Shown: in pieces, positions 1 through 37,323 of the stretch
Numbering within the stretch: position 1 is the first letter of the stretch
Layout: each line of letters opens with the position of its first letter
Source of the DNA: Candidatus Nomurabacteria bacterium
Lineage (GTDB): Bacteria > Patescibacteriota > Minisyncoccia > Phycocordibacterales > UBA9973
Assembly: GCA_026395895.1 (NCBI GenBank)
Contig: JAPLXV010000003.1
Location: 1 to 56,600, forward strand
DNA: 56,600 nt
Direction: 5' to 3'
Notes under the pieces: generated by a model
The model's database searches: none
What the model was told of the DNA's origin: nothing
Seen by the model: the letters and a program-made list of their open reading frames with translations, nothing else
Translations under genes and position numbers: made by a program

Positions 1-1506
<1,506 letters not shown>

Positions 1507-6045: not shown

Positions 6046-6271
6046 AAGCCCGCCCGAATTTCGCCAAAACAAAAAGAGGAGCAAGCGGAGGATTCCTCCC
6101 CAGACCCCTCCTCCTCCGCTTGCGACATCCGAATTCGGAAAAAAGGAATCAGCCGAAGTTTTGCGGAATCCTTTCCCCAGAAAATTGTTTCCGCAAAACT
6201 TCGTCCTCATTGTTTCAGATTTCTTCATCGGGATTGCTTTCAAAAAAGGTTCGAATTTTGTACAATGAATA
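6046..6271 (-). repeat. Y' arm, inverted copy of 3791-4016, abutting the attR core at 6272-6277
   Basis: See 3791-4016. Confidence 0.9.
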
Positions 6272-6805: not shown

Positions 6806-6816
6806 TCGTAAAATTA

Positions 6817-6954
6817 TTAGAAAAATAATGTAACGAAGTGAAATATATTTTTCTTAACCCTGTTAAATAATTTTTGCAAGGTAAAAATTGCCCGAAGGGC
6901 ATTTAACAGGGTGATGATTTTTATACTCATTACATTCGTTAAAAATCAATCATG
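6817..6954 (+). ncRNA. Structured leader element, copy 1 (ends at the ATG of the cupin gene)
   Basis: Shares TTAGAAAAATAA...ATATTTTTCTTAACCC..GTTAAATAATTTT...TTTAACAGGGTGATGATTTT...AAAATCAATCATG with 27631-27776. There is a 12 bp stem 6857-6868/6901-6912 enclosing two hairpins. Confidence 0.55.
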
Positions 6955-7350
6955 AAAGGATTTAATGTAAACATAGAGAAAGAAACTTTGGAGAATACAA
7001 ATTTTCGCAAAGTTTTATATACGGGCAAACATAGCCAGTTGGTTTTAATGAGTTTAAAACCCAATGAAGAAATTGGCATGGAAGTTCATACTGACAACGA
7101 TCAATTTTTCCGCATAGAAAGCGGACATGGCAAATGTATTATTGATGGTAATTCCTATGACCTGATCGATGGGTCGGTTATTATTGTTCCTTCTGGTGCT
7201 CAGCACAATGTCATCAATACATCCAGCTCAGAAGATTTGAAACTCTACACAATTTATTCTCCAGCTCATCATCAAGATGGGGTAGTAAGATTTACTAAAG
7301 CAGAAGCGGAAGCCGACAGTCCAGAATTTGATGGAAAAACAACGGAATAA
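6952..7350 (+). CDS. Cupin domain protein
   Basis: GMEVHTDNDQFFRIESGHG...VIIVPSGAQHNVINT shows cupin motifs 1 and 2. Confidence 0.85.
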   Translation: MKGFNVNIEKETLENTNFRKVLYTGKHSQLVLMSLKPNEEIGMEVHTDNDQFFRIESGHGKCIIDGNSYDLIDGSVIIVPSGAQHNVINTSSSEDLKLYTIYSPAHHQDGVVRFTKAEAEADSPEFDGKTTE

Positions 7351-7358
7351 AAAAGTTC

Positions 7359-8852
7359 ATGAAATTAACCAAAACCGATTATCTCATATGGAAAGATTGC
7401 GCCAAAAATGCTTGGCTTAAAATACACAAGCCAGATATTTATTTTGCCGAACCTTTATCTGCTTTTGATCAGGGGATAATAGAAACAGGCAATGAAGTTG
7501 ATGTTCTAGCTCGAGAACTATTTCCGGGTGGTGTTTTAGTGTCAGGACTTGATGCCTCAGAAGAAACAAAAAAATTAATAAAATCCCAAACGTCTGTGAT
7601 TTATCAGCCGGTATTTGAGACTGCTTTATATAAAGTTATTTGTGATATTTTAGTATGGAATGCGGATTCCAAAACATATGATTTATATGAAGTAAAAGCT
7701 TCCAACAGCGGAGATGACAAAAAGAAAAAAGACGAACTTTACACTTACGACATTGCTTTTCAATATTTGGTGCTTAAAGAGTTGAATGTTCCTTTAGGAA
7801 GATTATCTCTTGTAAGATTTAATAGTGAATATGTAAGAGGAGCAGAACTTGATTTGGAGCAACTTTTTTTGAAAGAGGATTTTACTGAAAAAGTTATGAA
7901 AGTATCCAATATGGTTAAAGAAGAAATGAAAATCGCTCAAGAATTTCTTGCTTCTGAAAAAGAGCCATTTGGCCCATGCAAATGCGTTACTCGGGGAAGA
8001 AGCGCTCATTGCACCACTTTTTCGTATTCAAATCCTCATATTCCAGATTACAGCGTGCATGATATTTCTCGCATAGGGATGTCAAAAAAGAAACTAGAGG
8101 AATTGATTGATAGTAGTATTTTTCTTATTGAAGACGTTCCAGAAGATTTTCCATTAAGTGAAAAACAAAGAAATCAAGTTACGGCTACTCAACTGGATAA
8201 AGTTTTTATAAAAAAAGATGAAATAAATGCTTTTTTAAAAAATATTTCTATGCCAATATCTTTTTTGGACTATGAAACTTTTGCAGCTGGAATTCCGAGG
8301 TTTGCTGGTTTTAGTCCTTTTAATCAAATAACTTTTCAATTTTCCTTGCATATTCTTGAAGAAAAAGACAAGGAACCCAGACATGCTGAATTTATTTTTA
8401 CAGAAGATAAAAATCCGGATGAAGAATTTATTTTAGCCTTGAAAGAAAAATTACCAAGCAAAGGTTCAGTTATAACTTGGAATAAAAGTTTTGAGATGGG
8501 AAGAAATAAAAATCTTGCAAAAAGAAATCCAGAACATAAAGAATTTTTGGAAAATTTGAATTCCAGAGTTATCGATTTGATGGATGTTTTTTCTGAACAG
8601 CACTATATTCATCCTAAATTTAAGGGGAAAACGTCTATAAAATATATTTTACCTGTTCTTGCTCCAGAATTATCTTACAAAGCGCTTGATATACAAGAAG
8701 GAGCTAGTGCTTCAGACTCATGGAATAAAATAGTAAAAGGTGAGTATTCTAAAGAGGAGAGACTAGAAAAAATTGAACAATTAAAAACATACTGCAAACT
8801 TGATACCTATGCGATGTACGCAATCTGGAAGCATTTAAGTGATTTAGTTTAA
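7359..8852 (+). CDS. DUF2779-like protein (N-terminal PD-(D/E)XK/Cas4-like nuclease fold with Cys cluster, C-terminal exonuclease-like domain)
   Basis: 497 aa with LYEVKAS, the Cys cluster GPCKCV...HCT, and ISFLDYETFAAGIPRF...QFSLHI, as in DUF2779 proteins. Confidence 0.75.
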   Translation: MKLTKTDYLIWKDCAKNAWLKIHKPDIYFAEPLSAFDQGIIETGNEVDVLARELFPGGVLVSGLDASEETKKLIKSQTSVIYQPVFETALYKVICDILVWNADSKTYDLYEVKASNSGDDKKKKDELYTYDIAFQYLVLKELNVPLGRLSLVRFNSEYVRGAELDLEQLFLKEDFTEKVMKVSNMVKEEMKIAQEFLASEKEPFGPCKCVTRGRSAHCTTFSYSNPHIPDYSVHDISRIGMSKKKLEELIDSSIFLIEDVPEDFPLSEKQRNQVTATQLDKVFIKKDEINAFLKNISMPISFLDYETFAAGIPRFAGFSPFNQITFQFSLHILEEKDKEPRHAEFIFTEDKNPDEEFILALKEKLPSKGSVITWNKSFEMGRNKNLAKRNPEHKEFLENLNSRVIDLMDVFSEQHYIHPKFKGKTSIKYILPVLAPELSYKALDIQEGASASDSWNKIVKGEYSKEERLEKIEQLKTYCKLDTYAMYAIWKHLSDLV

Positions 8853-9715: not shown

Positions 9716-11530
9716 ATGCTGATTTCTTATAAATGGTTAAAAAATTATGTTCCAGATTTACCAGAGCCAAATAAATTGGTAGATATTTTTACATTTCATC
9801 TTTGTGAAGTAGAAGGAACAAAAAAAACAGAAGACGATACCATTTTTGATTTAAATATTTTGCCGGATAGAGCACATGACTTGCTATCTTATAGGGGAGT
9901 AGCTAGGGACTTAGCAGGGCTTCTGGATATAGAATATAAAGACATAGAGTATAAAATTGAAGTAGGTGGAACTACAAAGCTTTCTATAAAAGTAGAAAGT
10001 GAAAATTGCCGTAGATATATGGGTAGAATAATAAAAAAGGTAGAGGTTTTACCTTCCCCAGACTGGATGAGGAATTATCTTTTATCGATGGACCAACGCT
10101 CAATAAATAATTTAGTTGACGCTTCTAATATTGTTATGTTCGACAGAGGAAATCCTATTCATGTTTTTGATTTAGATAAAGTAGAGGGTAGTATAATAAT
10201 TCGCCAAGCAAAAGAAGGAGAAAAAATGACTACACTAGATAATAAGGAAGTTAAATTAAGTCCTTCAAATATGGTTATTGCCGACGAAAAAAATATTTTG
10301 GCTCTTGCTGGGGTGAAGGGTGGAAAAATAGCAGAAGTAGATGAAAATACAAAAAATATAATTATTGAAGTTGCCAATTTTGATCCGATAAGCGTGAGAA
10401 AAACTTCCAAAGAAGTAAATATATTTACTGACGCAGTAAAGAGATTTGAAAATGATTTATCTCCTGAAGTAGCAAGTGATGCGATAAATGATATGAGCGC
10501 TTTAGTTTTAGAGATGTGTAGAGGTGCTATCTTAGAAGAGGTAGTGGATGTTTATACAAAAAAACAAGAGAAGATAAAATTATCTTTTGATATAAAAAAG
10601 ATATCTAAAAGATTAGGTTTAGATATTTCTATTACTACAGTTCAAGACATATTAAAACGTTTTGGTGTTCTATATAAAAACACTGGTAACAATTTTGAGA
10701 TTATTGTTCCCGATATGAGGCTTGATCTAAAAACAAAAGAAGATATGTCTGAAGAAATAATAAGAATTTTAGGATACGATAAAATAAAACCAAAAATTCC
10801 CAAAATAAATTTTAAACCACAAGTAAACGAGGTATATGCCAAAATTTCTTGGGCAAGAAATAAACTTTTAAACGAGGGATATAGTGAAGTGATGACTTAT
10901 ACTTTTTGTAATAAAGGAGAAGTGGAAGTGCTTGCTTCTGCTTCAGATAAGAAATTCTTAAGAACAAATTTGAGTGATGGATTAAAAGAAAGTCTAAAAT
11001 TAAATCAACTAAATATGCCGTTGCTCGAGATGGATGAAATAAAAATTTTTGAAATAGGAACTGTTTTTTTGGAAGATAAAGAACAGATGAATGTTTGTTA
11101 TGCAGATAAGAAAAATATTACAGAAGTTTCTTTGGAAACGTTTTGTATGAATTCTCCTCTTGAGGAGTACTCCGACTTAAAGTTGGAGGGAGGTGGAGGT
11201 GTTTTCCACCCCGCCTTCGGCACCCCTCAAGAGGGGAATAAATTCAAACTCTGGTCTCTATTTCCATTTATTGTTCGTGACATTGCAGTTTGGGTTCCGG
11301 AAGAAATAAAAAGTGTAGATGTGGAAAAAGTCATAAAAAATAGTATGGGAGAGCTTGTAATTCGAGGTCCAGAACTCTTTGATCAGTTCAAAAAAGATGG
11401 CAAAATATCCTATGCTTTCAGGCTAGTTTTTCAGTCCTACGATAGGACCCTTACAGATGCTGAAATAAACGAAATTATGACTAAAATAACCAATAAAATC
11501 AAGGAGAAAAATGATTGGCAAGTAAGGTAG
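9716..11530 (+). CDS. pheT: Phenylalanine--tRNA ligase beta subunit (short form, no OB-fold tRNA-binding B2 domain)
   Basis: MLISYKWLKNYV start, ILPDRAHDLLSYRGVARDLA, B3/4 and B5 regions, and a C-terminal FDX-ACB-like domain (RDIAVWVPEE...YAFRLVFQS). Confidence 0.93.
   Translation: MLISYKWLKNYVPDLPEPNKLVDIFTFHLCEVEGTKKTEDDTIFDLNILPDRAHDLLSYRGVARDLAGLLDIEYKDIEYKIEVGGTTKLSIKVESENCRRYMGRIIKKVEVLPSPDWMRNYLLSMDQRSINNLVDASNIVMFDRGNPIHVFDLDKVEGSIIIRQAKEGEKMTTLDNKEVKLSPSNMVIADEKNILALAGVKGGKIAEVDENTKNIIIEVANFDPISVRKTSKEVNIFTDAVKRFENDLSPEVASDAINDMSALVLEMCRGAILEEVVDVYTKKQEKIKLSFDIKKISKRLGLDISITTVQDILKRFGVLYKNTGNNFEIIVPDMRLDLKTKEDMSEEIIRILGYDKIKPKIPKINFKPQVNEVYAKISWARNKLLNEGYSEVMTYTFCNKGEVEVLASASDKKFLRTNLSDGLKESLKLNQLNMPLLEMDEIKIFEIGTVFLEDKEQMNVCYADKKNITEVSLETFCMNSPLEEYSDLKLEGGGGVFHPAFGTPQEGNKFKLWSLFPFIVRDIAVWVPEEIKSVDVEKVIKNSMGELVIRGPELFDQFKKDGKISYAFRLVFQSYDRTLTDAEINEIMTKITNKIKEKNDWQVR
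11192..11242 (+). repeat. GC-rich hairpin module in frame in pheT (shares a 22-mer with trmD)
   Basis: GGTGGA 11192-11197 / TCCACC 11205-11210. CACCCCTCAAGAGGGGAATAAA at 11221-11242 is identical to 24809-24830. It encodes GGGVFHPAFGTPQEGNK. Confidence 0.8.
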
Positions 11531-11552: not shown

Positions 11553-13631
11553 ATGGCTAAAGAAAAAGAAGTAAAAAATGGGCACCATTATGATGCCTCT
11601 GATATCTCTGTTTTAGAAGGACTTGATCCAGTCAGACGTCGTCCAGGAATGTATATCGGAACCACCGGTCCAGAAGGTTTACACCATCTCGTTTGGGAAA
11701 TTTTTGATAACTCGCGCGATGAAGCGATGGGTGGTTTTTGTGATGATATAGAAGTTGTCCTTTTGCCGAACAATCGTATTCGAGTGGCAGACAATGGGCG
11801 AGGTGTGCCTGTTGATATTCACAAAAAAACTAAAGTATCTGCTTTGGAAACTGTTATGACTACTCTGCATGCTGGAGGAAAATTCGGTGGAGAAGGCTAT
11901 AAAGTTTCTGGAGGCTTGCATGGAGTGGGAGCGTCAGTAGTAAATGCGCTCTCAATTTATTGTAAAGCGGAAGTGCATAAAGATGGTGGTAAATATATAC
12001 AAGAATATTCTCAAGGTAAGAAAAAAGCTTCAGTAAAAAAAATTGGGTCTTCAAAATTACATGGAACCATCATTACTTTTGAACCAGATCAAGAAATTTT
12101 TAAAGATATAAAGTTTGATTTAAGTACAATTATAAATCATATTCGTCAGCAAGCTTATTTAGTTAAAAAATTAAAAGTTTCAATAATAGATGCGCGAGGT
12201 TGGGATAATAAAAAAGGACTTGATGACTCTGACGTATTTTATTTTAGAGATCTTGGCATAGAACTTCCCTCCACTTCTTTTTATTTTGAAGGAGGATTGA
12301 TTTCTCTTATAAAATATTACAACAAGTTTCAAAAACCACTTCACGATCATATTTTTTATGTTGAAAAAGAATTGGACGGTGTGATGGTTGAAATAGCTTT
12401 ACAATATGTTGATGACATTGTTGATAGAATAATTCCTTTCGCAAATAATATACATACCGCTGAAGGTGGGACACATGTGACTGGTTTTAAAACTGCTCTT
12501 ACTCGCACCTTGAATACTTATTGTAAAAAGAATGAAATGATGAAAGATTCAGAAGGTGGATTTACCGGCGATGATGTACTGGAAGGTCTTACAGCTGTCA
12601 TTTCGGTGAAGTTAAGAGAGATACAATTTGAAGGTCAAACCAAGGCAAAATTAGGCTCTATGGAGGCCCAAGGAGCTGTTGGGACAATTTTTGGGGAGGC
12701 TTTTGCTGCTTTTCTAGAGGAAAACCCAGATGAAGCAAAAGCTATAATAAATAAGTCTATTTTGGCCTTAAAAGCTCGTAAAGCAGCCAAAGCGGCTAAA
12801 GATTCAGTTCTTCGTAAAGGTGCGCTTGAAGGTATGACCCTGCCTGGAAAATTAGCAGATTGCCAAAGCAAAAGTGCAGAAGATTCAGAATTATTTTTAG
12901 TAGAAGGAGATTCGGCAGGAGGTTCGGCTAAACAAGGTAGAGATAGACGCACTCAAGCCATTCTTCCGCTTCGTGGAAAAATTTTAAATGTTGAACGTGC
13001 TCGCATAGATAAAATGCTTGCTTCTAAAGAAGTAAGAGCTCTGGTTATTGCGATGGGTACTTCTATTGGAGACACTTTTGATCTTTCTAAAATGCGTTAT
13101 CACAAAATAATTATTGCCACAGATGCTGATGTGGACGGTGCGCACATTCGCACCCTTTTGCTGACTCTTTTTTATAGATATTTTAGACAAGTTGTGGACG
13201 CGGGCTATATTTATATTGCTCAACCACCACTTTATAAAATAAAAAGAGGAAAGGAAGTTAGTTATGCATATTCCGATGAAGAGAAAATAAAAATTATCGG
13301 TAAAGAAACAGATGTAAGTGAGATACAAGCGGTTAATGATGAAGAACCCCTACCCGACCTCCCCCTTAGTAAGGGGGAGGAGAAAGGAGGGGGTCTAGAG
13401 TCTAAACAATCTACAAAAATTCACATTCAGCGTTATAAAGGTCTCGGAGAAATGAACCCAGAAGAACTTTGGGAAACAACCATGGACCCAGCTCATCGAG
13501 TATTAAAAAAAGTAAATATAGATGATGCCGAAGAGGCCAACAAAATTTTTGAAATTCTGATGGGTTCCGAAGTTCCTCCTCGAAAATCCTTTATCCAATC
13601 TAATGCTAAATTAGCAGAGATTGATATTTAA
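11553..13631 (+). CDS. gyrB: DNA gyrase subunit B
   Basis: YDASDISVLEGLDPVRRRPGMYIG, GGLHGVGASVVNALS, EGDSAGGSAKQGRDR, PLRGKILNVE, QRYKGLGEMNPEELWETTMDP. Confidence 0.97.
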   Translation: MAKEKEVKNGHHYDASDISVLEGLDPVRRRPGMYIGTTGPEGLHHLVWEIFDNSRDEAMGGFCDDIEVVLLPNNRIRVADNGRGVPVDIHKKTKVSALETVMTTLHAGGKFGGEGYKVSGGLHGVGASVVNALSIYCKAEVHKDGGKYIQEYSQGKKKASVKKIGSSKLHGTIITFEPDQEIFKDIKFDLSTIINHIRQQAYLVKKLKVSIIDARGWDNKKGLDDSDVFYFRDLGIELPSTSFYFEGGLISLIKYYNKFQKPLHDHIFYVEKELDGVMVEIALQYVDDIVDRIIPFANNIHTAEGGTHVTGFKTALTRTLNTYCKKNEMMKDSEGGFTGDDVLEGLTAVISVKLREIQFEGQTKAKLGSMEAQGAVGTIFGEAFAAFLEENPDEAKAIINKSILALKARKAAKAAKDSVLRKGALEGMTLPGKLADCQSKSAEDSELFLVEGDSAGGSAKQGRDRRTQAILPLRGKILNVERARIDKMLASKEVRALVIAMGTSIGDTFDLSKMRYHKIIIATDADVDGAHIRTLLLTLFYRYFRQVVDAGYIYIAQPPLYKIKRGKEVSYAYSDEEKIKIIGKETDVSEIQAVNDEEPLPDLPLSKGEEKGGGLESKQSTKIHIQRYKGLGEMNPEELWETTMDPAHRVLKKVNIDDAEEANKIFEILMGSEVPPRKSFIQSNAKLAEIDI
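13346..13394 (+). repeat. GC-rich palindromic module in frame in gyrB (family 3)
   Basis: 10 bp stem CCTCCCCCTT 13358-13367 / AAGGGGGAGG 13371-13380. Outer pair ACCCC 13346-13350 / GGGGT 13390-13394. It encodes PLPDLPLSKGEEKGGG just upstream of the RYKGLGEMNP motif. Confidence 0.8.
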
Positions 13632-16721: not shown

Positions 16722-17417
16722 ATGATTCAATTTTCAGGTTTTGAAAAAAATACAAAAGTGATTTTTAAAGATAAAAATTTATTAAAACAGGCTTTTATCC
16801 ATCGTTCCTATATAAATGAGAATCCGGGTTCTAATCTTTCACACAACGAGCGTTTGGAATTTTTAGGAGATGCAGTACTGGAGCTTGTTGTGACTGATTT
16901 TCTTTATAAAAAATATCCGAATTATACAGAAGGAGAATTAACTGCTATTCGTTCAGCTTTAGTAAATGCCATTATTATTTCTGAAGTTGCTTCAAAAATT
17001 GGGATGAATGATTACTTACTTTTATCTAAGGGCGAAGCTAAAGACAACGGTAAAGCCAGACAATATATTTTAGCTAATACGTATGAAGCGTATATTGGAG
17101 CGGTTTATTTGGATCAAGGCTATAATGCTGTAAATAAATTTGTCACTGCCACTCTTTTACCGCACACAGAAGAAATTGTGGCTAAAAAACTTTGGCGTGA
17201 TGCTAAAAGTTTGGTACAAGAAAAAGCCCAAGAATTTGTTGGAGTTACTCCTGCTTATAAAGTTTTACACGAATCGGGTCCTGACCATGATAAACATTTT
17301 ACGGTAGGTATTTTATTTGGCTCTGATTTAATTGCTGAAGGAAAAGGAAAATCAAAACAAGAAGCGGAACAGAAGGCTGCCGAAATGGCATTAAAAGTGA
17401 AAAATTGGATGGAATAA
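16722..17417 (+). CDS. rnc: Ribonuclease III
   Basis: NERLEFLGDAVLELVV signature and a C-terminal dsRBD (GPDHDKHFTV...GKGKSKQEAEQKAA). Confidence 0.95.
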   Translation: MIQFSGFEKNTKVIFKDKNLLKQAFIHRSYINENPGSNLSHNERLEFLGDAVLELVVTDFLYKKYPNYTEGELTAIRSALVNAIIISEVASKIGMNDYLLLSKGEAKDNGKARQYILANTYEAYIGAVYLDQGYNAVNKFVTATLLPHTEEIVAKKLWRDAKSLVQEKAQEFVGVTPAYKVLHESGPDHDKHFTVGILFGSDLIAEGKGKSKQEAEQKAAEMALKVKNWME

Positions 17418-17418: not shown

Positions 17419-19566
17419 ATGCGACTAAAAAACCTTGAAATAAATGGCTTTAAATCATTTTCTAAAAAAACTGTTTTGGAGTTTCAAAATTCGATTGTGG
17501 CTATTGTCGGTCCCAATGGATCTGGTAAATCAAATGTAGTGGAAGCTTTGCGTTTTGTTTTAGGCGAACAGTCAATGAAATCAATGCGTGGGTCATTGGG
17601 AGCTGATTTGATTTTTAAAGGGTCAAAAAACTTACCCAAAAGTTCCCGAGCAACTGCTACTATATATTTTAATAACTCTGATAAAATTTTTAAACTTTCT
17701 AATGAAACAGGAGAAAATATAAATTTAAATTATGATGTTATTTCAATTTCTCGTGAAGTTTTTTCTGATGGCTTAAATAAATATATTTTGAATGGTTCAG
17801 AAGTAAGATTAAAAGATATTAATAATCTTTTATCCTCAGTTAATATTGGTTCTTCTGGGCACCATATTATTTCGCAAGGTGAGGCGGACAGAATTCTAAA
17901 TGCTTCTCCTAGGGATAGAAGGGAAATGGTAGAAGATGCTCTTGGACTTAAAATTTACCAATATAAAATAAAAGAAGCGCAACGCAAATTAGAAAGAACT
18001 ACCGACAATATGAAAGAGGTTTCACTTTTGCGTCGAGAAAATGCTCCGCATTTAAATTTTCTAAAAAAACAAGTAGATAAATTTGAAAAAGCAAAAGAAA
18101 TGCAGGTAACATTGTTATCTCTTTATAAAGAATACTTAAAGAAAGAAAGTGTTTATTTAGAAAAAGAACAATCAAATTTACTTTCAGAAAAAAATAAAAT
18201 TTCTTTAGAGTTGAAAAACGTAAAAGAGAAAATCTCTGATACAGATGAAACTGAAAAGAGAGGAGAAAGTGAAAAAGAAAAAGAATTAAAAGTATTTGAA
18301 AAAAAGATAAGTGAAATTCATGCAGTCAAAAATGAAATAGAACGCAAATTGGGAAGAATTGAAGGAATTCTTGAATCAAAAGGAAATAAAGTTAAAATTT
18401 CTGGTAAATGTCCTTTATGTGGCAGTGAAATTAAGGAAAAAGAAGAAGGTCAGATAGAAAAGAGACAAAATGATGAAAAAGAATTGGAAGAATTAAAAAA
18501 TTCTCAAGCTGGTATTCTAGCTGAAATGGAGAATTTAAAAAATGAGGAGGGAAATATTTTTGAAAAAATAGAAATATTGAAAAAAGAAATTAATCAAGAG
18601 AATGAAGCTCTGCATATAAAAGAAAAGGAGAAATTTAATTTTAGAGTTAGGCACCAAGAGTTATCCTCTTCTTTAGATCTAATTTCTGTCAAAGAACAAA
18701 ATCTTAAAAGAGAGATAGAATCTTTCGAAAATGAAATAAAAGAAGGTGAAGCTTTAATTGGAAGTGAAATTTTGTCTTATAAAAATTTTGAGGTGAATGA
18801 AATAATTGATAGAAATGCGCAAGAAGAATCAAGACGAAAAATTGAACGTATAAAAATGAAGTTAGAAGACGTTGGTGTGGGTGGAGGATCAGAAGTAATG
18901 AAAGAATATGAGGAAGTTTTTCAAAGAGATAATTTTTTAGCCAAAGAGATGGAAGATTTAGCTGTAAGTATAGAGTCTCTTCGAAAATTGATGGCAGATT
19001 TGAAAGAAAAAATAGATATAGAATTTAAAGAGGGTATTAAGAAAATAAATGTAGAGTTTGATAAATTCTTTTCTTTGATGTTTGGCGGAGGAACTGGCTA
19101 TCTTGCAATTGTTGTTGAAAGTAAAAAGAAGAAAGAAGCCCCGACGCTCGAAGAGGTCGGGGTCCCGACTCCTGATGAAGATCAGGACGTCGGGAAAGAA
19201 ATCGTTCCTGAACAAGGCATTGAAATTAATGTTTCGCTTCCACATAAAAAAGTGAAAGAACTGAATGCACTTTCTGGAGGAGAAAGGTCTCTTACCTCTA
19301 TTGCTCTTCTTTTTGCTATGTCCCAAGTAAATCCACCGCCATTTTTGGTACTTGATGAAACAGATGCTGCGCTAGACGAAGCAAATTCTCGCAAATATGG
19401 GGATATGCTAGAAAAACTCTCTCATCACTCTCAGCTTATAGTCGTTACTCATAATAGGGAAACAATGTCTCGCGCTGGCATTTTATATGGCGTCACTATA
19501 GGTTCCGATGGTGCCTCCAAACTTCTCTCTGTCAAACTGGACGAAGCCGCCGCAATTGCAAAGTAA
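17419..19566 (+). CDS. smc: SMC-family ATPase, short form (715 aa) with no recognisable hinge and a central CPLC motif
   Basis: SMC-type heads: GFKSFSKKTVLEF...GPNGSGKSNVVEALRFVLGEQS at the N-terminus and LSGGERSLTSIALLFAM...FLVLDETDAALDEAN...VVTHNRETM at the C-terminus. The middle is all coiled coil, with GKCPLCGSE at aa 331-334. Confidence 0.85.
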   Translation: MRLKNLEINGFKSFSKKTVLEFQNSIVAIVGPNGSGKSNVVEALRFVLGEQSMKSMRGSLGADLIFKGSKNLPKSSRATATIYFNNSDKIFKLSNETGENINLNYDVISISREVFSDGLNKYILNGSEVRLKDINNLLSSVNIGSSGHHIISQGEADRILNASPRDRREMVEDALGLKIYQYKIKEAQRKLERTTDNMKEVSLLRRENAPHLNFLKKQVDKFEKAKEMQVTLLSLYKEYLKKESVYLEKEQSNLLSEKNKISLELKNVKEKISDTDETEKRGESEKEKELKVFEKKISEIHAVKNEIERKLGRIEGILESKGNKVKISGKCPLCGSEIKEKEEGQIEKRQNDEKELEELKNSQAGILAEMENLKNEEGNIFEKIEILKKEINQENEALHIKEKEKFNFRVRHQELSSSLDLISVKEQNLKREIESFENEIKEGEALIGSEILSYKNFEVNEIIDRNAQEESRRKIERIKMKLEDVGVGGGSEVMKEYEEVFQRDNFLAKEMEDLAVSIESLRKLMADLKEKIDIEFKEGIKKINVEFDKFFSLMFGGGTGYLAIVVESKKKKEAPTLEEVGVPTPDEDQDVGKEIVPEQGIEINVSLPHKKVKELNALSGGERSLTSIALLFAMSQVNPPPFLVLDETDAALDEANSRKYGDMLEKLSHHSQLIVVTHNRETMSRAGILYGVTIGSDGASKLLSVKLDEAAAIAK
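19139..19195 (+). repeat. 57 nt double-hairpin module in frame in smc (family 1, TCCCGAC/GTCGGGA)
   Basis: CCCCGAC-N10-GTCGGGG, then TCCCGAC-[TCCTGAT GAAG ATCAGGA]-C-GTCGGGA. It encodes APTLEEVGVPTPDEDQDVGK. Confidence 0.85.
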
Positions 19567-19568: not shown

Positions 19569-21485
19569 TTATTTGAATTTGATTTTTTCTTCCTTGCCGA
19601 TTATTAATTGATTTGGCTGGAAGAATTTGTTTAGTTTAACGGTGTCTTTTTTTATGGACATACTTCCATCTCTATTTAATTTAATTTCCAAAAGCATACC
19701 CTGCATTGTATTTACGGAAAAACCCTGGTCAAAAATAAAGTTGCCTAGCGAATAAGCGATAAAACCCACGCACGAATTTTGAGTGCAATCTTTTGGGCTA
19801 TAAACTTCTGTATCTTCTACCACGTGTGGATGAGTGCCAATTATAATTTTAGCCCCGTCATCTATTGCCTTGTGCGCTAAATATTCTTGTCTGGAATTAT
19901 GTTTTATTTTATATTCGTCTCCAAAATGAAATGACACGACTAAATAATCAACTTGCTTAGATGCATTTTGCACTATTTCATCAAAACGCGGATTGCTTGC
20001 AAATAATAAACCAGCTTTGTCTGCTCCTGCCTCCATCCAATCTGGCCCTACATCTGAAAATCCCAAATATCCTATTTTCATTCCATATTTTTCTATAATA
20101 ACAGGCATTTCTGCTTCGTTTGCATTCATTCCTCCACCAATATATGAAATTTCATTTTCTTTTAATCTAGTTAAAGTATCAACATAAGCATTTTGTCCCC
20201 AATCTCCCATATGATTATTAGCAACCGAAACCACAGAAAATCCTGCGCCTTTTAATGCAGGAATAGTGGAAGGGTCCATTCTAAATGAATATAAATTATG
20301 CATATCTTTTCCTGCATCAGAGGCTGGACCTTCCAAATTTGCAAAAGTTATATCAGATCTTTTTAAGATTCCTAATTTTTCAAAAAGGGCTGAGTAATCT
20401 CCTTTGAAATTTTTGTTTACAGAATTTTTAACTCCACGATCAAGCATTATATCTCCACCGAACAAAAGAGTGACGAAATCTTGATCATATACTACAGGTA
20501 AATCAGTTCTTTCTTTGACCCAAGCAGTATTAGCGTCAGCTTCTCCGCCATAATATATATTTTTATTTAAATATTTTAAAATATTTTCTACGTCCTTAAA
20601 ACGATCTTTACTTTGTAAAAGAGTGATAGCAATATGGCGTGTTCCAGCTTCTGAAAGGGGAACTGAAAAAGTGGAAATAACTGTTTGTAAAGCGACATCT
20701 GTATAACCACTTTTACCTCCCAAATAGCCATTTTCAAGCAGGAATTGATTATTACTGAACCAATTGTGTGTTTTATTGGAATAGCTTCGTTTGGTTGTGA
20801 TTTGTAGTAAATTTGGGTCTTTTTGATTTAAATATCCTGCTAATTTAAACATATCAAAAACAGTTGATTGATTTTTAGGAGAAAGTCCGCTTGGGTCGTC
20901 AAAACTAGTCTTAGATAATTCTAATTTGAGAGCCTCCTGGTTCATTTTTTTTAGAAAAATATCTCGGCCAAAAAATTCAGCTATTACTTCGGCAGCATCA
21001 TTGCTTGATTCTAAAAGTAGGGGATAAATGAGGTCTGTAATTTTTATTTTTTCTCCTATTTTCAAATTACCATTCTTTCCAGAGGTGGCTGAGGCTTTTT
21101 TAGAAACTTTAGCAATATCATCTGAGCTTTTTGATTCTGTGGCCACAAGCGCAGTCATAAGTTTAGAAACAGAAGCAAGTGAATATTGTTCATCTTGATT
21201 TTTTGTCAAAATAATTTCTCCCGTATCTAAATCACCAACTAAAAAAGCCTTGGCTGATACTTTTGGTTTCAAATTTAAATCTTTTACGAAATAAGAAAAT
21301 CCAGATGTTAATTCTGGTGCTGTCAGAGATTCCATGGCTGTTGCGGTATTTTCATTTGGTTCTATTATTTTTTTATATTCAGCATCTTTAAAAAAGAGAG
21401 AGACAAAAAAAATACCAACCATAGTAGCAGAGATTGTCCAAAATCCGAGTTTAATTTTTGGACCTAGGGTAGATTTCATATTCAT
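19569..21485 (-). CDS. Fusion protein: N-terminal D-alanyl-D-alanine carboxypeptidase (S11 PBP) and C-terminal CapA-type metallophosphatase domain
   Basis: N-terminal TM, then SVSKLMT (SxxK), ESSNDAA (SxN) and KSGYT (KTG). The C-terminus has GGDIMLDRGV, ANLEGP, VANNHMGDWG, SFHFGDEY and GTHPHV. Confidence 0.85.
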   Translation of the reverse strand: MNMKSTLGPKIKLGFWTISATMVGIFFVSLFFKDAEYKKIIEPNENTATAMESLTAPELTSGFSYFVKDLNLKPKVSAKAFLVGDLDTGEIILTKNQDEQYSLASVSKLMTALVATESKSSDDIAKVSKKASATSGKNGNLKIGEKIKITDLIYPLLLESSNDAAEVIAEFFGRDIFLKKMNQEALKLELSKTSFDDPSGLSPKNQSTVFDMFKLAGYLNQKDPNLLQITTKRSYSNKTHNWFSNNQFLLENGYLGGKSGYTDVALQTVISTFSVPLSEAGTRHIAITLLQSKDRFKDVENILKYLNKNIYYGGEADANTAWVKERTDLPVVYDQDFVTLLFGGDIMLDRGVKNSVNKNFKGDYSALFEKLGILKRSDITFANLEGPASDAGKDMHNLYSFRMDPSTIPALKGAGFSVVSVANNHMGDWGQNAYVDTLTRLKENEISYIGGGMNANEAEMPVIIEKYGMKIGYLGFSDVGPDWMEAGADKAGLLFASNPRFDEIVQNASKQVDYLVVSFHFGDEYKIKHNSRQEYLAHKAIDDGAKIIIGTHPHVVEDTEVYSPKDCTQNSCVGFIAYSLGNFIFDQGFSVNTMQGMLLEIKLNRDGSMSIKKDTVKLNKFFQPNQLIIGKEEKIKFK

Positions 21486-23611
21486 TATGTTGTTAGCGCA
21501 TAATCTATCGTTTTTCTTTCTAAATCAACACTTTTTACTTTTATCTTTACTCGGTCGCCTAGTCTGTATTTTTTCCCCGACGCTTTCGGTCGGGATCCCG
21601 GCCCCAAAGGGCGTCGGGACTTTTTCCCTTGTCCGACTAGTTCCAATTTTTTTTCATTAAAAATATAAAAATTATCTTCCATATCTCGTACTCGTACCAG
21701 ACCCTCGCATTTTGTTTCTACTTCTTCTACATAAATACCCCATTCTGTTATACCACTAATAATACCTTCAAATGTTTTTGAAATACGAGAAGACATATAT
21801 TCAACTTGTTTGTATTTTATAGAGGCTCGTTCAGCATCTGAAGCAAATTTTTCTCTTTCTGATGCTTTTCTGGAAATTTCTTCATAGATACTTAATTTCT
21901 CTTTGCCCACTTTTAATCCTTTTAGGTAATCTGTCAAAAGTCTGTGGACTACTACATCTGGGTAGCGTCTGATGGGGGAAGTAAAATGAGCATAGTATTC
22001 AAAAGCCAAACCATAGTGGCCGACATTTTTTGTGGAATAAATTGCTTTGGCCATAGAGCGTATAATTGCGCGATTGACTGTATTTTCTTCATTTTTTCCC
22101 TCAAGACTCTTTAGAAGATTATTTAATTCATAATTTGGAATAACCCCATCAATTAAAGATATTTTATATCCCAAACTCCTTAAAAAGAATGCCAAATCAG
22201 TCATTTTTTCTTTACTAGGATTATCATGGATACGATAGACAAATACTCCTCCATCTTTCTTGGTGCCTTTGGAGATAGTTTCAGCCACTTTTTTATTTGC
22301 TAAAAGCATAAATTCTTCAATTAATTTGTTTGAATCACCTCGTACTTTTTTTATTACTTTTAACGGTGTTCCATTTTTATCTAAAACAAATTTTACTTCT
22401 TCTTGTTCGAGCGAGATAGCTCCATTTGCAAATCTTTCTTTGTTCAATTTTTTAGCCAAATTATTTAAAATAAAAAGTTCTTTGTGCAGTGGCGCTGAAT
22501 TTTCTTTTATAGATTTTTCCGCTTCTTCGTAAGTAAATCTTTTTTGAGAATGTATCACCGTACGTCCGTACCATTCTTTTTTTACTTGCGCGTTTTTGTC
22601 TAGGACAAAAACTGCGCTCATGGTCAGTCTGTCTTTATTGGGAACTAGAGAACAGAGGTCGTTAGAAAGTACTTCCGGAAGCATTGGGATAGTTCTATCT
22701 ACTAAATAAACAGAAGTGCCTCTTTTTTTTGCTTCCTTATCAATTTCGCTTCCAATTTTTACATAATGAGAAACGTCGGCTATATGAATTCCGATTTCAT
22801 ATACCTCACCCCCTAACCCCCTCTCCTTGAAACCCCCTTGCTCCCCCTTATCAAGGGGAAACCATTTGCCTCCCCTGACAAGGGGAGGTCTGGAGGGGTT
22901 AAGGAGAGGGGGGAGAATACGGAATGAAATGGCATCATCAAAATCTTTTGCATCATCTGGGTCAATAGTAAAAGTGAGAGTTTTTCTAAAATCGCGTCGC
23001 CCATTATAATCTTCATTTTTAATACCTAAACTTTTTATTTTTTCCGCTTCCTCCTCAACTTTTTGAGGCAGTTCACTATCAAACCCTTTTTCTATAGCGA
23101 TAGCATGCATTTCCGCATTATTGTCTCCGGGTTTTCCTAAAACTTTTATTATTTTTCCTTCTGGTGCTTTTAGTCCATCTTTCCAAAAAATTATTTCTGT
23201 ATAGACTTTTTGTCCTGCCTTTGCGCCATTTAGCATTTTTTCGGGTATTAGAATATCGGTATACATTTTTGTATCATCGGGTTTTAGAAAATATATGCCG
23301 TCTTCTTTCTCTAAGACTCCCGAAAAGCCCATCTTTGCACGAGAGATTATTTTTAATACTTCGGCTGTCAAACGCCCTTTTCCTTTTGGATGCAAAGTAA
23401 TTTCAACCATATCACCGTGCAGAGCTGTATTTAAGTGCCTAAAATCAATCTCAGGGTCCTTCCCGACGTTCTGATTTCTATCAGAAGTCGGGATCCCGAC
23501 CCCATTGGGCGTCGGGACCTCATTCAATATTCTTACATATCCAATACCCTTGCTTGTTATAGATATAATACCCTGTACTGTCTTTTGAATTTTTTTTGTT
23601 TTTCCTTTCAC
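21485..23611 (-). CDS. rnr: Ribonuclease R (start probably GVG-context GTG at 23611; track ORF extends to 23722)
   Basis: Cold-shock/OB N-terminus, an RNB domain (DPDDAKDFDDA, GIHIADVSHYV, VYLVDRTIPMLP) and a C-terminal S1 domain. The 23612-23722 extension overlaps the rpsP start region on the opposite strand. Confidence 0.9.
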   Translation of the reverse strand: MKGKTKKIQKTVQGIISITSKGIGYVRILNEVPTPNGVGIPTSDRNQNVGKDPEIDFRHLNTALHGDMVEITLHPKGKGRLTAEVLKIISRAKMGFSGVLEKEDGIYFLKPDDTKMYTDILIPEKMLNGAKAGQKVYTEIIFWKDGLKAPEGKIIKVLGKPGDNNAEMHAIAIEKGFDSELPQKVEEEAEKIKSLGIKNEDYNGRRDFRKTLTFTIDPDDAKDFDDAISFRILPPLLNPSRPPLVRGGKWFPLDKGEQGGFKERGLGGEVYEIGIHIADVSHYVKIGSEIDKEAKKRGTSVYLVDRTIPMLPEVLSNDLCSLVPNKDRLTMSAVFVLDKNAQVKKEWYGRTVIHSQKRFTYEEAEKSIKENSAPLHKELFILNNLAKKLNKERFANGAISLEQEEVKFVLDKNGTPLKVIKKVRGDSNKLIEEFMLLANKKVAETISKGTKKDGGVFVYRIHDNPSKEKMTDLAFFLRSLGYKISLIDGVIPNYELNNLLKSLEGKNEENTVNRAIIRSMAKAIYSTKNVGHYGLAFEYYAHFTSPIRRYPDVVVHRLLTDYLKGLKVGKEKLSIYEEISRKASEREKFASDAERASIKYKQVEYMSSRISKTFEGIISGITEWGIYVEEVETKCEGLVRVRDMEDNFYIFNEKKLELVGQGKKSRRPLGPGSRPKASGKKYRLGDRVKIKVKSVDLERKTIDYALTT
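21575..21619 (-). repeat. 45 nt double-hairpin module in frame near the rnr C-terminus (family 1, read in a different frame)
   Basis: CCCGAC-GCTTTCG-GTCGGG, then TCCCGGC-CCCAAAGGGC-GTCGGGA. It encodes SRRPLGPGSRPKASG. Confidence 0.8.
22807..22914 (-). repeat. ~108 nt nested multi-hairpin GC-rich module in frame in rnr, just upstream of the HIADVS catalytic motif (family 3)
   Basis: Outer 12 bp stem CCCCCTCTCCTT 22817-22828 / AAGGAGAGGGGG 22901-22912. Inner hairpins CCCCTT-ATC-AAGGGG (22844-22858) and CCTCCCCT-GACA-AGGGGAGG (22869-22888). It encodes PPLLNPSRPPLVRGGKWFPLDKGEQGGFKERGLGGE. Confidence 0.85.
23461..23517 (-). repeat. 57 nt double-hairpin module in frame in the rnr N-terminal region (family 1)
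   Basis: TCCCGAC-[GTTCTGAT TTCT ATCAGAA]-GTCGGGA, then TCCCGAC-CCCATTGGGC-GTCGGGA. Same length, orientation and frame as the smc copy. It encodes VPTPNGVGIPTSDRNQNVGK. Confidence 0.85.
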
Positions 23612-23673
23612 TCTTTTAATATAACATAAATTTTTGTATTTGCCTTTTTGGGGAATTATGTTAGACTCTAAAG

Positions 23674-23982
23674 ATGTTAAAAATAAGATTACAAAGAATT
23701 GGAAGGAAAAATGACCCATCATTTCGGGCGGTTTTGACTGATTCTAAAAACAGCACTAAAAGCGGAAAATTTTTAGAAATAGTTGGTACTTATAATCCAA
23801 AGGCGGGCGAGACTAGTTTTAAGACTGAAAGAATACAATACTGGGTTTCAAAAGGGGCACAACTTTCCGATACCATGCATAATTTTATGGTGCATCAAAA
23901 AGTGATAGAAGGGAAGAAGAGAAACGTATTGCCGAAGAAAAAACCGACAGTTAAAAGAAAGGAGTTGAAAGCTAAAAAATAA
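23674..23982 (+). CDS. rpsP: 30S ribosomal protein S16
   Basis: MLKIRLQRIGRKNDPSFRAVLTDS...GTYNP...W...GAQLSDT. Confidence 0.93.
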   Translation: MLKIRLQRIGRKNDPSFRAVLTDSKNSTKSGKFLEIVGTYNPKAGETSFKTERIQYWVSKGAQLSDTMHNFMVHQKVIEGKKRNVLPKKKPTVKRKELKAKK

Positions 23983-24542: not shown

Positions 24543-25250
24543 GTGAGATTCCATATCATTACAATTTTCCCAGATATTTTTGACTCATACCTCAAAGAGT
24601 CTATTATTGGGCGGGCGATAAAAAATAAGTTTATTTCAGTGAAGTTTTATAATCCTAGAGATTTTATTAGGGGTAATAAAAGTAATTACAAACCAGTAGA
24701 TGACAAGCCTTACGGCGGAGGGCCGGGGATGGTGATGAGAGCCGAGCCAATTCTTAAAGCTATAGAAACCGTAGTAAAAAAGATATCCACCCTGTCTCGC
24801 AAACGAGTCACCCCTCAAGAGGGGAATAAAAAAATATTAATTATCAATTTTATTCCTAGCGCTGAAAAATTTACCACTAATTATGCCAAGACGATTTCCA
24901 AAAAATATACAGATATTATTTTAATTTGCGGAAGATATGAAGGCATAGATGCGAGAGTAGATAAAATTCTCAAAACAAAGAAACTTTCAATAGGGGATTA
25001 TGTTTTGACCGGCGGAGAAATACCAGCTATGATTTTAGTGGATTGCGTTTCTCGCCAAATAGAAGGTGTCCTTGGTAATTTTGATTCAAGGGAAGAAGAA
25101 AGAATCTCTTCAAGCGAAGTTTATACAAGGCCAGAAGTTTTGAAACATAAAAACAAAAATTATAAAGTCCCTAAAGTGTTATTATCTGGGGACCACAAAA
25201 AGATAGAGGATTGGAAAAAGCGCGAGAAGAATGATAAAATAAATAAGTGA
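24543..25250 (+). CDS. trmD: tRNA (guanine37-N1)-methyltransferase TrmD (GTG start)
   Basis: FHIITIFPDIF, DDKPYGGGPGMVM, CGRYEGIDARV, SIGDYVLTGGE, YTRPE, LLSGDHKKIEDW. Confidence 0.93.
   Translation: MRFHIITIFPDIFDSYLKESIIGRAIKNKFISVKFYNPRDFIRGNKSNYKPVDDKPYGGGPGMVMRAEPILKAIETVVKKISTLSRKRVTPQEGNKKILIINFIPSAEKFTTNYAKTISKKYTDIILICGRYEGIDARVDKILKTKKLSIGDYVLTGGEIPAMILVDCVSRQIEGVLGNFDSREEERISSSEVYTRPEVLKHKNKNYKVPKVLLSGDHKKIEDWKKREKNDKINK
24809..24830 (+). repeat. GC hairpin module in frame in trmD (identical 22-mer to pheT)
   Basis: CACCCCTCAAGAGGGGAATAAA encodes TPQEGNK in the same frame as in pheT. Confidence 0.8.
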
Positions 25251-25696
25251 AAGATTATTTTAAATGGCATGCTATAAAATCTGATATTGAAAATTCTGGG
25301 AAAGAAATTCTTTTTCGTGATAGAGAAATTTGGTGGTGCTCGCTTGGAGAAAATGTTGGTTTTGAGCAAGATGGAAAAAATGAGAAATATGAACGGCCCG
25401 TTTTAGTTTTCAGAAAATTTAACAAAGGGATGTTTTGGGGATTACCACTTACTTCAAAAGAAAAAAATGATTCTTTTCACTATAAACTTACTTTACATAT
25501 AAAAAATGAAAATGATGAAATTGAAGAAAAAATTTCTATGGTTATATTATCTCAATTAAGGTTGTTGAGTGGAAAGCGTTTAATTCGTCGTGTTGCTCGT
25601 ATTAATGAAAATAATTTTAAAGAAATAGAAAACAAGGTTATTAGTCTAATAAAAACAAACGAAAACGGACCCCTTTCGGGGTCCTCGAGTGCCTAA
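25247..25696 (+). CDS. PemK/MazF-like toxin-fold protein (GTG start overlapping the trmD stop)
   Basis: REIWWCSLGENVGFEQDGKNEKYERPVLVFRKFNKGMFWGLPLTSK matches the conserved core of MazF/PemK-family proteins. GTGA start/stop overlap with trmD. Confidence 0.7.
   Translation: MKDYFKWHAIKSDIENSGKEILFRDREIWWCSLGENVGFEQDGKNEKYERPVLVFRKFNKGMFWGLPLTSKEKNDSFHYKLTLHIKNENDEIEEKISMVILSQLRLLSGKRLIRRVARINENNFKEIENKVISLIKTNENGPLSGSSSA
25667..25684 (+). repeat. GC hairpin at the 3' end of the MazF-like ORF (possible terminator or palindromic module)
   Basis: GGACCCC-TTTC-GGGGTCC encodes GPLSGS just before the stop. Confidence 0.5.
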
Positions 25697-35532: not shown

Positions 35533-37323
35533 ATGAATTCACCAGTCGAACAAATTAAGGAGAGGCTTTCGATTGAAGAGATAGTCTCTTCCTACATAAA
35601 ACTAGAAAAAGCGGGCGCAAACTTTAAAGCCAAGTGTCCTTTTCACAATGAAAAGACACCTTCCTTTTTTGTCTCTCCAGACCGTGGCAGTTATTATTGT
35701 TTTGGTTGTGGAGCTAAGGGTGATATTTTCACTTTTATAGAAGAATTTGAAGGGCTTGATTTTAAGGGTGCATTAAAAATCTTGGCCGAACGTGCAGGAG
35801 TTTCGCTTGCGCAATACAGTAGAGAAAAAGAAGGAGAAAAGGAAAAATTATACAGAGCGATGGAAGAATCAACCAAATTTTTTGAAAAAAATTTAGAAGA
35901 GAACAAAAAAGCGCTAGAATATCTGAAGGCAAGAGGGTTAGAAGATAAAACTATTAAAGATTTTAGAATTGGATTTGTAAAAAATGATTGGCGTTTGCTT
36001 TACACTTATCTTAGAGATAAAAATTTTACAGATATAGAAATAGAAAAAGCTGGATTAATTAAATACCCCCACCCGGCCTCCCCCGAAGGAGGAGGAGGAG
36101 AATTACCCTCTCCTTTGGGGAGGGTTGGGAGGGGTTATGATAGATTTCGTGGGCGAATTATGTTTCCGATTTCAGATTCGAGTGGTCGCATCATCGCTTT
36201 TTCCGGCAGAATTTTTGAGGATGACCCTTCGACAAGCTCAGGGCAGGCGGTTAATCAGGCCAAATATTTAAACAGTCCAGATACCCCAATTTTCAGCAAA
36301 TCAGCCGTTTTATATGGATTAGACAAAGCTAAAGAATCAATCCGCAAAAATAATTTTTCTATTCTAGTTGAAGGACAAATGGATCTAGTTTTGTCTCACC
36401 AAGCAGGGTTTAGAAATACTGTAGCCACTTCTGGGACAGCTCTTTCAGATTCTACAGTTTCCAAAGAAAATGTTGTATCAAATTTAGGGCTATTACGTCG
36501 TCTTTCTGGGAATATTGTTTTGGCTTTTGATGCAGATCGCGCAGGATTTAATGCCTCTTCACGCGCAGGTAAAATTGCTCTTTCTTTTGGGATGGATGTA
36601 AAAGTAGTTTCTATGCCAGAGGGTATTGACCCAGCCGATTTAATTTCTAAAAGCGGAACGGACGCCTGGCGTACGGCTATTCGTAATTCAAAACATATCA
36701 TAGAGTTTTTATTGGATAAAGTTTTGGCTAGTCATAAAGATGATATGCGCAAAGCTGGGAGAGAAATAAGAGAAAAAGTATTGCCTTATGTTGATGCTGT
36801 TGAAAGTTCAATCGAGAAATCACATTTTATTAAGCTTATTAGTAATAAATCGGGGATAGCTGAAAATGCACTTCTAGAAGATTTAAAGAAAGTTCAATCC
36901 GAATTAAAGTCTGAAACGGAAGAAACAAAAATTGCTACAGAAAATGTGGAGAAAAGAATGAGAAAAGACCCGATTGAACGTAGACTTTTAGGTATAGCTT
37001 TTTGGCAAGAAAGTATTCAAAAGAAAACAATAGATCCAGAATTAATCTTTCAAAAATTAGATAAAGTGAAAGAAATTTATAAAAATATAAAAGAAGACTT
37101 AATTTATGAAGCGGAAGAATTTTATTTGGATAACGAAAATTTACAAAAAGATGTAAAGGAAATGCTATTGAATATAGAAGAAGAATATTTGAATGAAGAT
37201 TTGAATGAAAAAATGGTAGAATTAAAAGATTTTAAAGATAGAAAAGAAGAAGTAGAAATTTTAAAAAAGATAGACGAGATACATAAAAGAAAAGAAAAAA
37301 TTAAAAATAGAAGCGGTCGTTAA
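35533..37323 (+). CDS. dnaG: DNA primase DnaG
   Basis: Zinc-binding [14 protein letters not shown]....[11 protein letters not shown], a TOPRIM domain ([22 protein letters not shown]) and [11 protein letters not shown] at 35533 is preferred over the track start. Confidence 0.93.
36065..36135 (+). repeat. GC-rich palindromic module in frame in dnaG (family 3)
   Basis: CCTCC-CCCGAA-GGAGG (36077-36092), CCCTCTCC-TTT-GGGGAGGG (36106-36124), and outer ACCCC/GGGGT. It encodes [23 protein letters not shown]. Confidence 0.8.
36223..36248 (+). repeat. Second GC-rich module in frame in dnaG (family 4, GACCCTTCGA...CTCAGGGCA)
   Basis: GACCCTTCGACAAGCTCAGGGCAGGC compares with GACCCTTCGATTTCTCTCAGGGCAAGC at 51584-51610. 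It encodes DPSTSSGQA. Confidence 0.65.

Follow-up and report, generated by a model that had tools for sequence, protein, structure and literature searches.

The DNA considered here, called the window throughout, is a 56.6-kb Candidatus Nomurabacteria contig (Patescibacteria, also known as the Candidate Phyla Radiation, CPR) with a GC content of 34%. Its minus strand carries a complete open reading frame (ORF) for RNase R of the VacB/RNase II family (21485..23722, with 21485-23611 encoding the annotated 708-aa protein P0001), and this gene contains, in frame, a GC-rich nested palindrome that is the subject of the present analysis. Pfam recognizes CSD2, RNB (1.5e-104) and S1 domains in the ORF, giving the CSD-RNB-S1 architecture, and its best PDB match is Bacillus subtilis RNase R (8cdu, 3.6e-107). 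The AlphaFold2 model, built with 90 orthologues, superposes on 8cdu_C with a Foldseek template-modelling (TM) score of 0.81. The HIADV motif and the catalytic aspartates D217, D223, D225 and D226 do not vary among the 90 orthologues; from established structural work, we take these aspartates to be the equivalents of D201, D207, D209 and D210 of Escherichia coli RNase II. The palindrome lies between DFDDAISF and YEIGIHIADVS, i.e. between two catalytic-core motifs of the RNB domain.

The repeat proper spans 22804-22915 and has a GC content of 58%, far above that of the window. Read on the plus strand, the first half of its outer element, referred to as type A (22804..22828), consists of a tag, CCTCACCCCC (22804-22813), a TAA linker and the arm CCCCCTCTCCTT (22817-22828); the second half (22901..22918) consists of the arm AAGGAGAGGGGG (22901-22912), which pairs perfectly with the first over 12 bp, followed by GAGAAT. 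The latter is a degenerate complement of the tag and extends the outer helix by 6-7 bp beyond a 3-nt UUA bulge. The loop of the outer hairpin (22829..22900) contains a second-level stem, AACCCC/GGGGTT (22831-22836 and 22895-22900), which surrounds two perfect hairpins, one of 6 bp (CCCCTT/AAGGGG, 22844-22858) and one of 8 bp (CCTCCCCT/AGGGGAGG, 22869-22888). A preliminary description of this DNA had reported the 12-bp stem and the two hairpins that it encloses, all of which are borne out by the sequence and its predicted fold; the second-level stem and the outer extension are additional to it. The inner hairpins resemble a hairpin in gyrB, CCTCCCCCTT-AGT-AAGGGGGAGG (13358-13380). With stems of 12, 8 and 6 bp, the units have the form of repetitive extragenic palindromic (REP) elements, i.e. 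short (20-40 nt), GC-rich, imperfect palindromic stem-loops. A reading of 22800-22925 finds neither GTAG/CTAC nor CGTC/GACG in or beside the element, and its conserved tag is CCTCACCCCC.

Folded as RNA, positions 22790-22930 reach -79.5 kcal/mol, compared with -55.8 +/- 4.1 kcal/mol for dinucleotide shuffles (z = -5.8), and none of 200 shuffles is as stable. A scan of the window for perfect inverted repeats (at least 12 bp, within 100 nt) yields 27 k-mer hits, about 15 times the 1.8 expected from first-order Markov simulations. At its gathering threshold, Rfam recognizes only two tRNAs in the window, and in e-value mode it adds only sub-threshold hits to generic hairpins (miRNA precursors); it finds no family in eight multi-copy loci of the element. 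Neither a curated RNA family match nor splicing motifs assign the module to a known structured RNA, a self-splicing intron or an intein. An RNAalifold consensus of 18 element copies, aligned with MAFFT, mis-registers the arms, and its pair counts are not used as evidence of covariation.

The position occupied by the module was compared among the 120 closest Nomurabacteria orthologues and in 160 fetched loci, at least 125 of which lie outside Nomurabacteria; few close relatives were among the results of a metagenome scan for orthologues, most of which came from Bacteroidota. Every non-Nomurabacteria RNase R (125+ loci) has a DFDDA..HIADV spacing of exactly 25 residues. Within the clade, extra residues (3-33 of them) are inserted at precisely this turn in 74 of the 120 orthologues; the other 46 have no insert and retain the 25-residue spacing. 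The latter have a basal turn of the FKEINKDEYEIG type; the filled turns comprise 12 of type A (RILPPLLNKERGLGGEV), 24 of type B (LPSLEKEGVGGG type) and 38 with other inserts, and some type-B inserts are lengthened by more hairpin-encoding stretches. The site is thus a tolerated, clade-specific insertion hot spot rather than the scene of a unique event. The preliminary description had called an insertion here unexpected, which overstates its singularity, and had named a comparable loop, generally present in RNase R, as the observation that would undo its claim. Such a loop is found in the majority of the clade relatives, while 46 of these and all non-Nomurabacteria proteins are without it, so the claim survives in part.

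The alleles at this turn form a series. In the empty allele of L165 (protein P0009, 80% identical and among the closest relatives), the site is TTCAAAGAAATAAATAAAGACGAATATGAA and reads TTC AAA GAA ATA AAT AAA GAC GAA TAT; empty alleles have seven codons (KEINKDE) where the window has 40 (22802..22921, minus strand; R231-V270 of P0001, RILPPLLNPSRPPLVRGGKWFPLDKGEQGGFKERGLGGEV). Six lineages (L161, L162, L166, L168, L169 and L170) have type A only, with the pattern CT[CT]CCCCCTCTCCTT-NNN-AAGGAGAGGGGG-[CT]TA-GGGGGTGAGGT. The outer loop measures 3 nt in these type-A orthologues and 72 nt in the window, a nested insertion of 69 nt or 23 codons, and this combination occurs in the series in the window and in L301, an independent JGI contig from a strain that is 88% identical. 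Over 108 nt, the nested module of L301 differs from that of the window by 6 substitutions, the module is unchanged in a Logan assembly, and the outer element is seen in at least six independent assemblies (JGI, ENA, NCBI and Logan). Filled, half-filled and empty alleles together show that the module has a stepwise anatomy. Types A and B differ from each other by matching 3-nt deletions in both arms. Relative to L165, the net gain is 99 nt or 33 aa, with 40 codons replacing 7; the insertion in the preliminary description is therefore present, and its figure of about 36 added residues requires this adjustment. The lengthening of the usual short spacing between the motifs also stands, with about 39 residues here and about 6 in the RNase R of B. 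subtilis and E. coli.

Conservation and distribution of type A follow an unusual pattern. Among seven type-A lineages, third-codon identity is 95.6% inside the element and 49.8% in 480 nt of flanks, and the loop triplet alone varies. On a neighbour-joining tree of RNase R from which the insert columns were masked, the 12 type-A orthologues require 12 parsimony steps, which equals the result with shuffled labels (bootstraps 11-12), and the empty/filled character requires 26 steps. A single-gene RNase R tree is a weak guide if recombination is frequent.

Among the three sense-orientation frames of the 108 nt, only the used frame is free of stops; the others have one and three. Peptides predicted from the module include ILPPLLNPSRPPLVR, WFPLDK, GEQGGFK and GLGGEVYEIGIHIADVSHYVK. 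To judge from the open frame, the insert is probably translated. A search of 5.8 billion proteins with the 41-aa insert gave no candidates, but it missed even the source protein and so carries no weight. In the AlphaFold2 model, residues 237-264, which lie between strands 226-233 and 270-278, have a predicted local distance difference test (pLDDT) value below 50, and the segment is modelled as a disordered excursion at the tip of a β-hairpin between motif I (DxxDAKDFDDA) and HIADVS. The two other modules of the same protein also have low pLDDT (below 50 at residues 31-50, about 57 around 662-680), and the remaining fold is confident. The insert may be neutral or nearly so for the enzyme. An in-frame insertion, an intact ORF and empty sites in relatives are also the hallmarks of the Rickettsia palindromic elements (RPEs).

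The outer element belongs to a dispersed family. Its stem and tail (GGGGGTGAGG) match a tagged palindrome of the form CCTCACCCCC-N2-3-CCCCTCTCC-loop-GGAGAGGGG, and a 21-nt pattern, CCTCACCCCCNNCCCCTCTCC, occurs in at least 120 IMG/VR stretches on unrelated phage or prophage contigs of 38-74% GC. The loops of these copies differ in length, the shortest measuring 3 nt and others holding over 40 nt of nested sequence, several with long nested inserts, and the palindrome is sometimes in frame inside phage genes. The Mu-like contig L172 has five copies in 7.3 kb, two of them within long ORFs, whose matches are to a Mu F-like protein and the large terminase. Other replicons also have matches, among them those of cyanobacteria and of Cupriavidus (17 places); one of the cyanobacterial and Cupriavidus matches falls within a coding sequence of 1621 aa. 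In 25 of 26 multi-copy loci, all copies have the same orientation. In a large subfamily (L181, L183, L189, L195, L196, L200, L204 and other IMG/VR loci), the right arm GGGCGAGGGG stands opposite CCCCTCTCCC, leaving a conserved T/C mismatch in the stem that might be a feature for protein recognition. The inverted pair of copies in L196 encloses a phage portal-like ORF, not a transposase, and a terminase-like ORF adjoins the pair, as judged from translations without a family search. An association of the repeat with DUF559 endonuclease genes was likewise discarded, with no motif hits within 400 nt in 127 loci.

About five diverged relatives of the element lie in the window itself, in ligA, gyrB, dnaG, pheT and trmD. 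The ligA copy (690..725) has the opposite coding orientation, and its reverse complement, CACCCCCTCCTTATGGAGGAGGGGGTTGGGGGTGGT, matches type B at the RNase R site of relatives; the gyrB, dnaG, pheT and trmD modules have arm motifs or identical 16-mers in common, and CACCCCTCAAGAGGGG is identical in pheT and trmD. In all four tail-plus-hairpin elements of the window (690, 13346, 22804 and 36065), the C-rich tail is on the left of the plus strand, whatever the gene strand (minus for RNase R, plus for the others). Such same-orientation copies hint at a strand- or replication-linked insertion bias, a weak indication in the window with n = 4.

A second family, GTCCCGACGCCCTTYGGGGYCGGGATCCCGAYCGMAAGCGTCGGG, is the source of the two other GC islands in the RNase R gene (21575-21622 and 23487-23518). 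One copy, GTCCCGACGCCCTTTGGGGCCGGGATCCCGACCGAAAGCGTCGGG (21575..21622, minus strand), lies in frame in the S1 domain and encodes SRRPLGPGSRPKASG; a partial copy, GTCGGGATCCCGACCCCATTGGGCGTCGGGAC (23487..23518, minus strand), lies in the N-terminal region and is read in the other frame (VPTPNGVGIPT). Among relatives, the element of about 48 nt occupies three positions in RNase R, namely N-terminal, in the post-RNB linker and in S1, and its two reading frames give SRRPxGxGSRP and VPTPxGxGIPT. L301 lacks it in S1, and in L165 it stands at another RNase R site. Three sites, two frames and absence from a strain that is 88% identical are direct evidence of mobility: this sister family moves between sites of the same RNase R gene. 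The second family has CGTC inside its stem/loop, not as a terminal tag. A 108-aa ORF on the plus strand (21334-21660), opposite the 3' end of the RNase R gene, crosses the S1-domain palindrome (…PAPKGVGT…) and is probably spurious, being kept open by the GC-rich repeat.

Housekeeping genes of the window hold at least ten such in-frame modules, at sites where orthologues are variable, shorter or empty, and every module of the window lies in frame inside an intact housekeeping ORF. GC-rich hairpin modules are found in ligA (685-789), pheT (11180-11246), gyrB (13338-13401), smc (19126-19199), trmD (24785-24827), dnaG (36056-36135, +18 aa relative to L165) and a gene for an HMA/DsbD_2 protein (51226-51302). 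The RNase R insert is about the largest of the GC-rich modules, much as first described. The suggestion that its location reflects the ability of RNase R to unwind structured RNA finds no support, given similar modules in ligA, pheT, gyrB, smc, trmD and dnaG of the same window. The palindromes are DNA-level repeats, read in differing frames and orientations. Purine arms at 715, 746, 13384 and 36086 hold a Shine-Dalgarno-like AAGGAGG that is sequestered by CCTCCTT-like arms; four of the ten window occurrences lie in modules. A third dispersed palindrome family is represented by a 30-nt perfect palindrome, TCCGCCAGAGGCGGATCCGCCTCTGGCGGA, in the HMA/DsbD_2 gene (51245-51274), with a near-identical copy inside the trmD ORF of the relative L161 (5995-6038).

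The reading that we favour, at a probability of roughly 0.7, is that the module is an in-frame, REP/RPE-like selfish palindromic repeat that sits as DNA in a permissive surface loop and is translated as a disordered extra loop. Small GC-rich palindromic elements, each a hairpin with a short asymmetric tag, would have entered the RNase R gene as DNA with the frame kept. A type A element of about 48 nt, of the form (degenerate tag)-CCCCCTCTCCTT-loop-AAGGAGAGGGGG-TTA-GGGGGTGAGGT, would have arrived first, and a 69-nt double-hairpin unit of the same superfamily would then have entered its 3-nt loop. Spread may have occurred by transposition, possibly via single-stranded hairpin DNA, and/or by short-tract recombination. 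The product would be a disordered loop rich in Pro, Gly and charged residues at a surface β-hairpin tip, tolerated by the enzyme.

Several observations weigh against this interpretation. The exact tag occurs once in 56.6 kb, and the inner 70 nt have no second copy in the available data. No transposase is found in the window: the Y1_Tnp of L162, used as a tblastn query, has no homologue there, and no Y1_Tnp Pfam match occurs among the 40 window ORFs scanned. In the relatives L162, L011 and L001, the Y1_Tnp genes are flanked by a different hairpin, CTAGGCCTTGCCTAG. In L162, the Y1_Tnp (IS200/RAYT-like, RAYT denoting REP-associated tyrosine transposase) gene at 6772-7434, as also in L011 and L001, lies between inverted copies of this hairpin, a REPtron-like layout. 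Comparison of filled and empty sites defines no target-site duplication; there is no direct repeat at the junctions, and the seven codons of the empty site are replaced, not duplicated. Finally, the junctions are identical in all type-A lineages, and third-position identity falls from 96% in the stem to 50% in the flanks. For a selfish insert that is purely neutral, this calls for an extra assumption, such as hairpin selection, concerted evolution or site-specific reinsertion. Recurrence and stem conservation may be due to hairpin selection, concerted evolution, short-tract allele exchange or site-preferring reinsertion.

The same features point to a different, more tentative possibility, namely that the palindrome tagged with CCTCACCCCC is a mobile element, so far undescribed, which spans phyla and is carried by phages as well as bacteria, and which repeatedly re-enters, or is actively maintained at, one precise RNase R site in a homing-like, site-preferring manner, its stems being conserved for propagation or an RNA-level function and its loop serving as a landing pad for other hairpins. 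The pointers to it are the scatter of type A on the tree, the identical junctions, the conserved stem third positions and the shared orientation in all but one of the multi-copy loci. It is rather unlikely that the hairpin or loop is kept for the benefit of the host, either as an mRNA structure that tunes rnr stability or translation (as a substrate of RNase III, encoded at 16722-17417 of the window, or of RNase R itself) or as a protein loop with an influence on how substrates gain access close to the catalytic centre. The near-identity of stem and tail nucleotides across seven lineages, with variation confined to the loop triplet, would suit such a role, as would the occupation of the turn in most of the 120 orthologues, the matched deletions in the two arms of types A and B and the persistence of the nested module over 12% nucleotide divergence. 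However, the closest relatives, such as L165, have empty alleles, the 25-residue spacing is universal elsewhere, and other lineages have unrelated sequences at the same turn; the element family is also found in unrelated genes, phages and intergenic DNA, and the insert is modelled as disordered. Substitution confined to the loop is moreover a signature of selfish mitochondrial GC clusters as well (PMC4478555).

Local manufacture of the palindromes, by template switching during replication or by hairpin extension at an AT-rich run of loop codons, with cross-lineage likeness arising by convergence, is very improbable. Perfect stems, nested growth and symmetric arm changes are what such a process would leave behind, and the type-A loop TTAATAAGG resembles the centre of the empty site, ATAAATAAAGA; yet convergence cannot explain why ligA and at least 120 contigs of unrelated origin have the same 21-40 nt of tag and stem, nor why an identical 48-nt element stands at three sites. 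Equally little weight, or slightly less, attaches to the idea that the segment is absent from the mature protein through mRNA excision or ribosomal bypass, in the manner of T4 gene 60 or of the byp elements in Magnusiomyces mitochondria. In its favour, the predicted RNA fold is highly stable, and GC-rich hairpin inserts in AT-rich coding DNA are reportedly the setting of byp elements, as Lang and colleagues are said to have described in PNAS in 2014. The openness of only the used frame makes excision unlikely; the segment has no in-frame stop and a length that is a multiple of three, the other modules are also in frame, no intron or ribozyme family matches, and a length of 108 nt is below that of inteins and of group I or II introns. 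An assembly or sequencing artefact is next to negligible: hairpins and GC-rich islands in AT-rich metagenomes can mis-assemble, but the same nested module recurs in the independent JGI contig, with its own substitutions, and in the Logan assembly, and the outer element recurs in the further assemblies listed above.

In-frame intragenic palindromes are a known kind of element. PMC3184786 and PMC3733652, with reference to Ogata et al. 2000, describe the RPEs of Rickettsia, which were the first such repeats known in frame within essential genes. As described there, they share with the present module their occurrence as palindromic in-frame repeats in essential genes of a reduced genome, translation into extra segments compatible with the protein surface, and presence or absence that differs between close relatives; they differ in being 105-146 bp long and Rickettsia-specific, whereas the units here are 20-50 nt, very GC-rich, nesting, cross-phylum and phage-borne. 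Intragenic REPs tagged with GTAG/CGTC add 20-80 aa to proteins of replication, repair and RNA metabolism, such as ligases, polymerases, helicases and tRNA synthetases, and a number of these REPs are nested in palindromes (Di Nocera et al. 2013, PMC3733652). Like the present element, they are GC-rich hairpins of 20-40 nt that bear a short, asymmetric tag and occur in frame as singles, dimers or clusters (PMC3733652). Unlike them, the element has CCTCACCCCC / GGGGGTGAGG as its tag rather than GTAG/CGTC, no RAYT found adjacent and a low apparent copy number, and it recurs at one site across many lineages, here in a 34% GC CPR bacterium.

Comparable structures occur outside bacterial chromosomes. 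Yeast mitochondrial GC clusters show loop-biased substitution and hairpin merging (PMC4478555). These mobile clusters (for example GC42, Wu and Hao 2015, PMC4478555), the double-hairpin elements of Allomyces and the repetitive hairpin elements of sponge mitochondria are GC-rich hairpins in an AT-rich genome, with substitution concentrated in loops and composite merging; GC clusters are organellar, mostly intergenic and have an AG target, whereas the present elements are bacterial or phage-borne and often in a coding frame, so the likeness is one of analogy and no homology is claimed. Miniature inverted-repeat transposable elements are likewise small, non-autonomous and structured, and sometimes fused to ORFs (PMC3184786); here, neither terminal inverted repeats of 15-30 bp around a core nor a target-site duplication is definable, and the units are much shorter. 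The bypass elements introduced above resemble the module as stable hairpin inserts in coding sequences of AT-rich genomes; they break the frame or hold stops and need matched take-off and landing codons, whereas the insert here is open. Full-text searches of one literature library yielded no paper that describes the element in CPR bacteria or names a CCTCACCCCC-tagged family, an absence that is not proof of novelty. Against the known background of in-frame intragenic REPs and RPEs, the present case stands apart by its tag, its CPR host, its cross-phylum and phage breadth, its recurrence at one site and the lack of a linked RAYT among the sequences analysed.

The wider neighbourhood is also variable. 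The small cargo genes of the trmD/rpsP/rnr region differ from one relative to the next, with a MazF/PemK toxin in the window (25247-25696), a PD-(D/E)XK protein in L161 (6470-6871), Patatin, DUF6363 and Y1 transposase genes in L162 (6415-8347) and a PIN protein in L163 (1636-3034). Elsewhere in the window, an ORF for a large serine recombinase (1961-3649; Resolvase, Recombinase and Zn ribbon) overlaps a tRNA-Ser gene (2054-2141), near-perfect inverted repeats of about 135 nt (3882-4016 and 6046-6180) bracket about 2 kb of hypothetical ORFs, and many inverted repeats of at least 12 bp cluster at 1961-6200. This segment looks like an integrated or invertible mobile segment.

If the module is indeed a selfish repeat of this kind, the paradox of a large insert near the active site of RNase R would be resolved, as it would represent selfish DNA in a permissive tip rather than an adaptation of the enzyme. 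Streamlined CPR genomes are seen here to carry in-frame palindromic repeats in core genes (ligA, gyrB, dnaG, pheT, smc, trmD and rnr). Such repeats inflate and diversify proteins, confound alignments and domain boundaries, and create GC-rich islands that may pass for functional RNAs. Should the recurrence at one site and the cross-phylum spread prove true, this system would offer a tractable case for studying how hairpins move without a linked transposase and how essential proteins gain loops.

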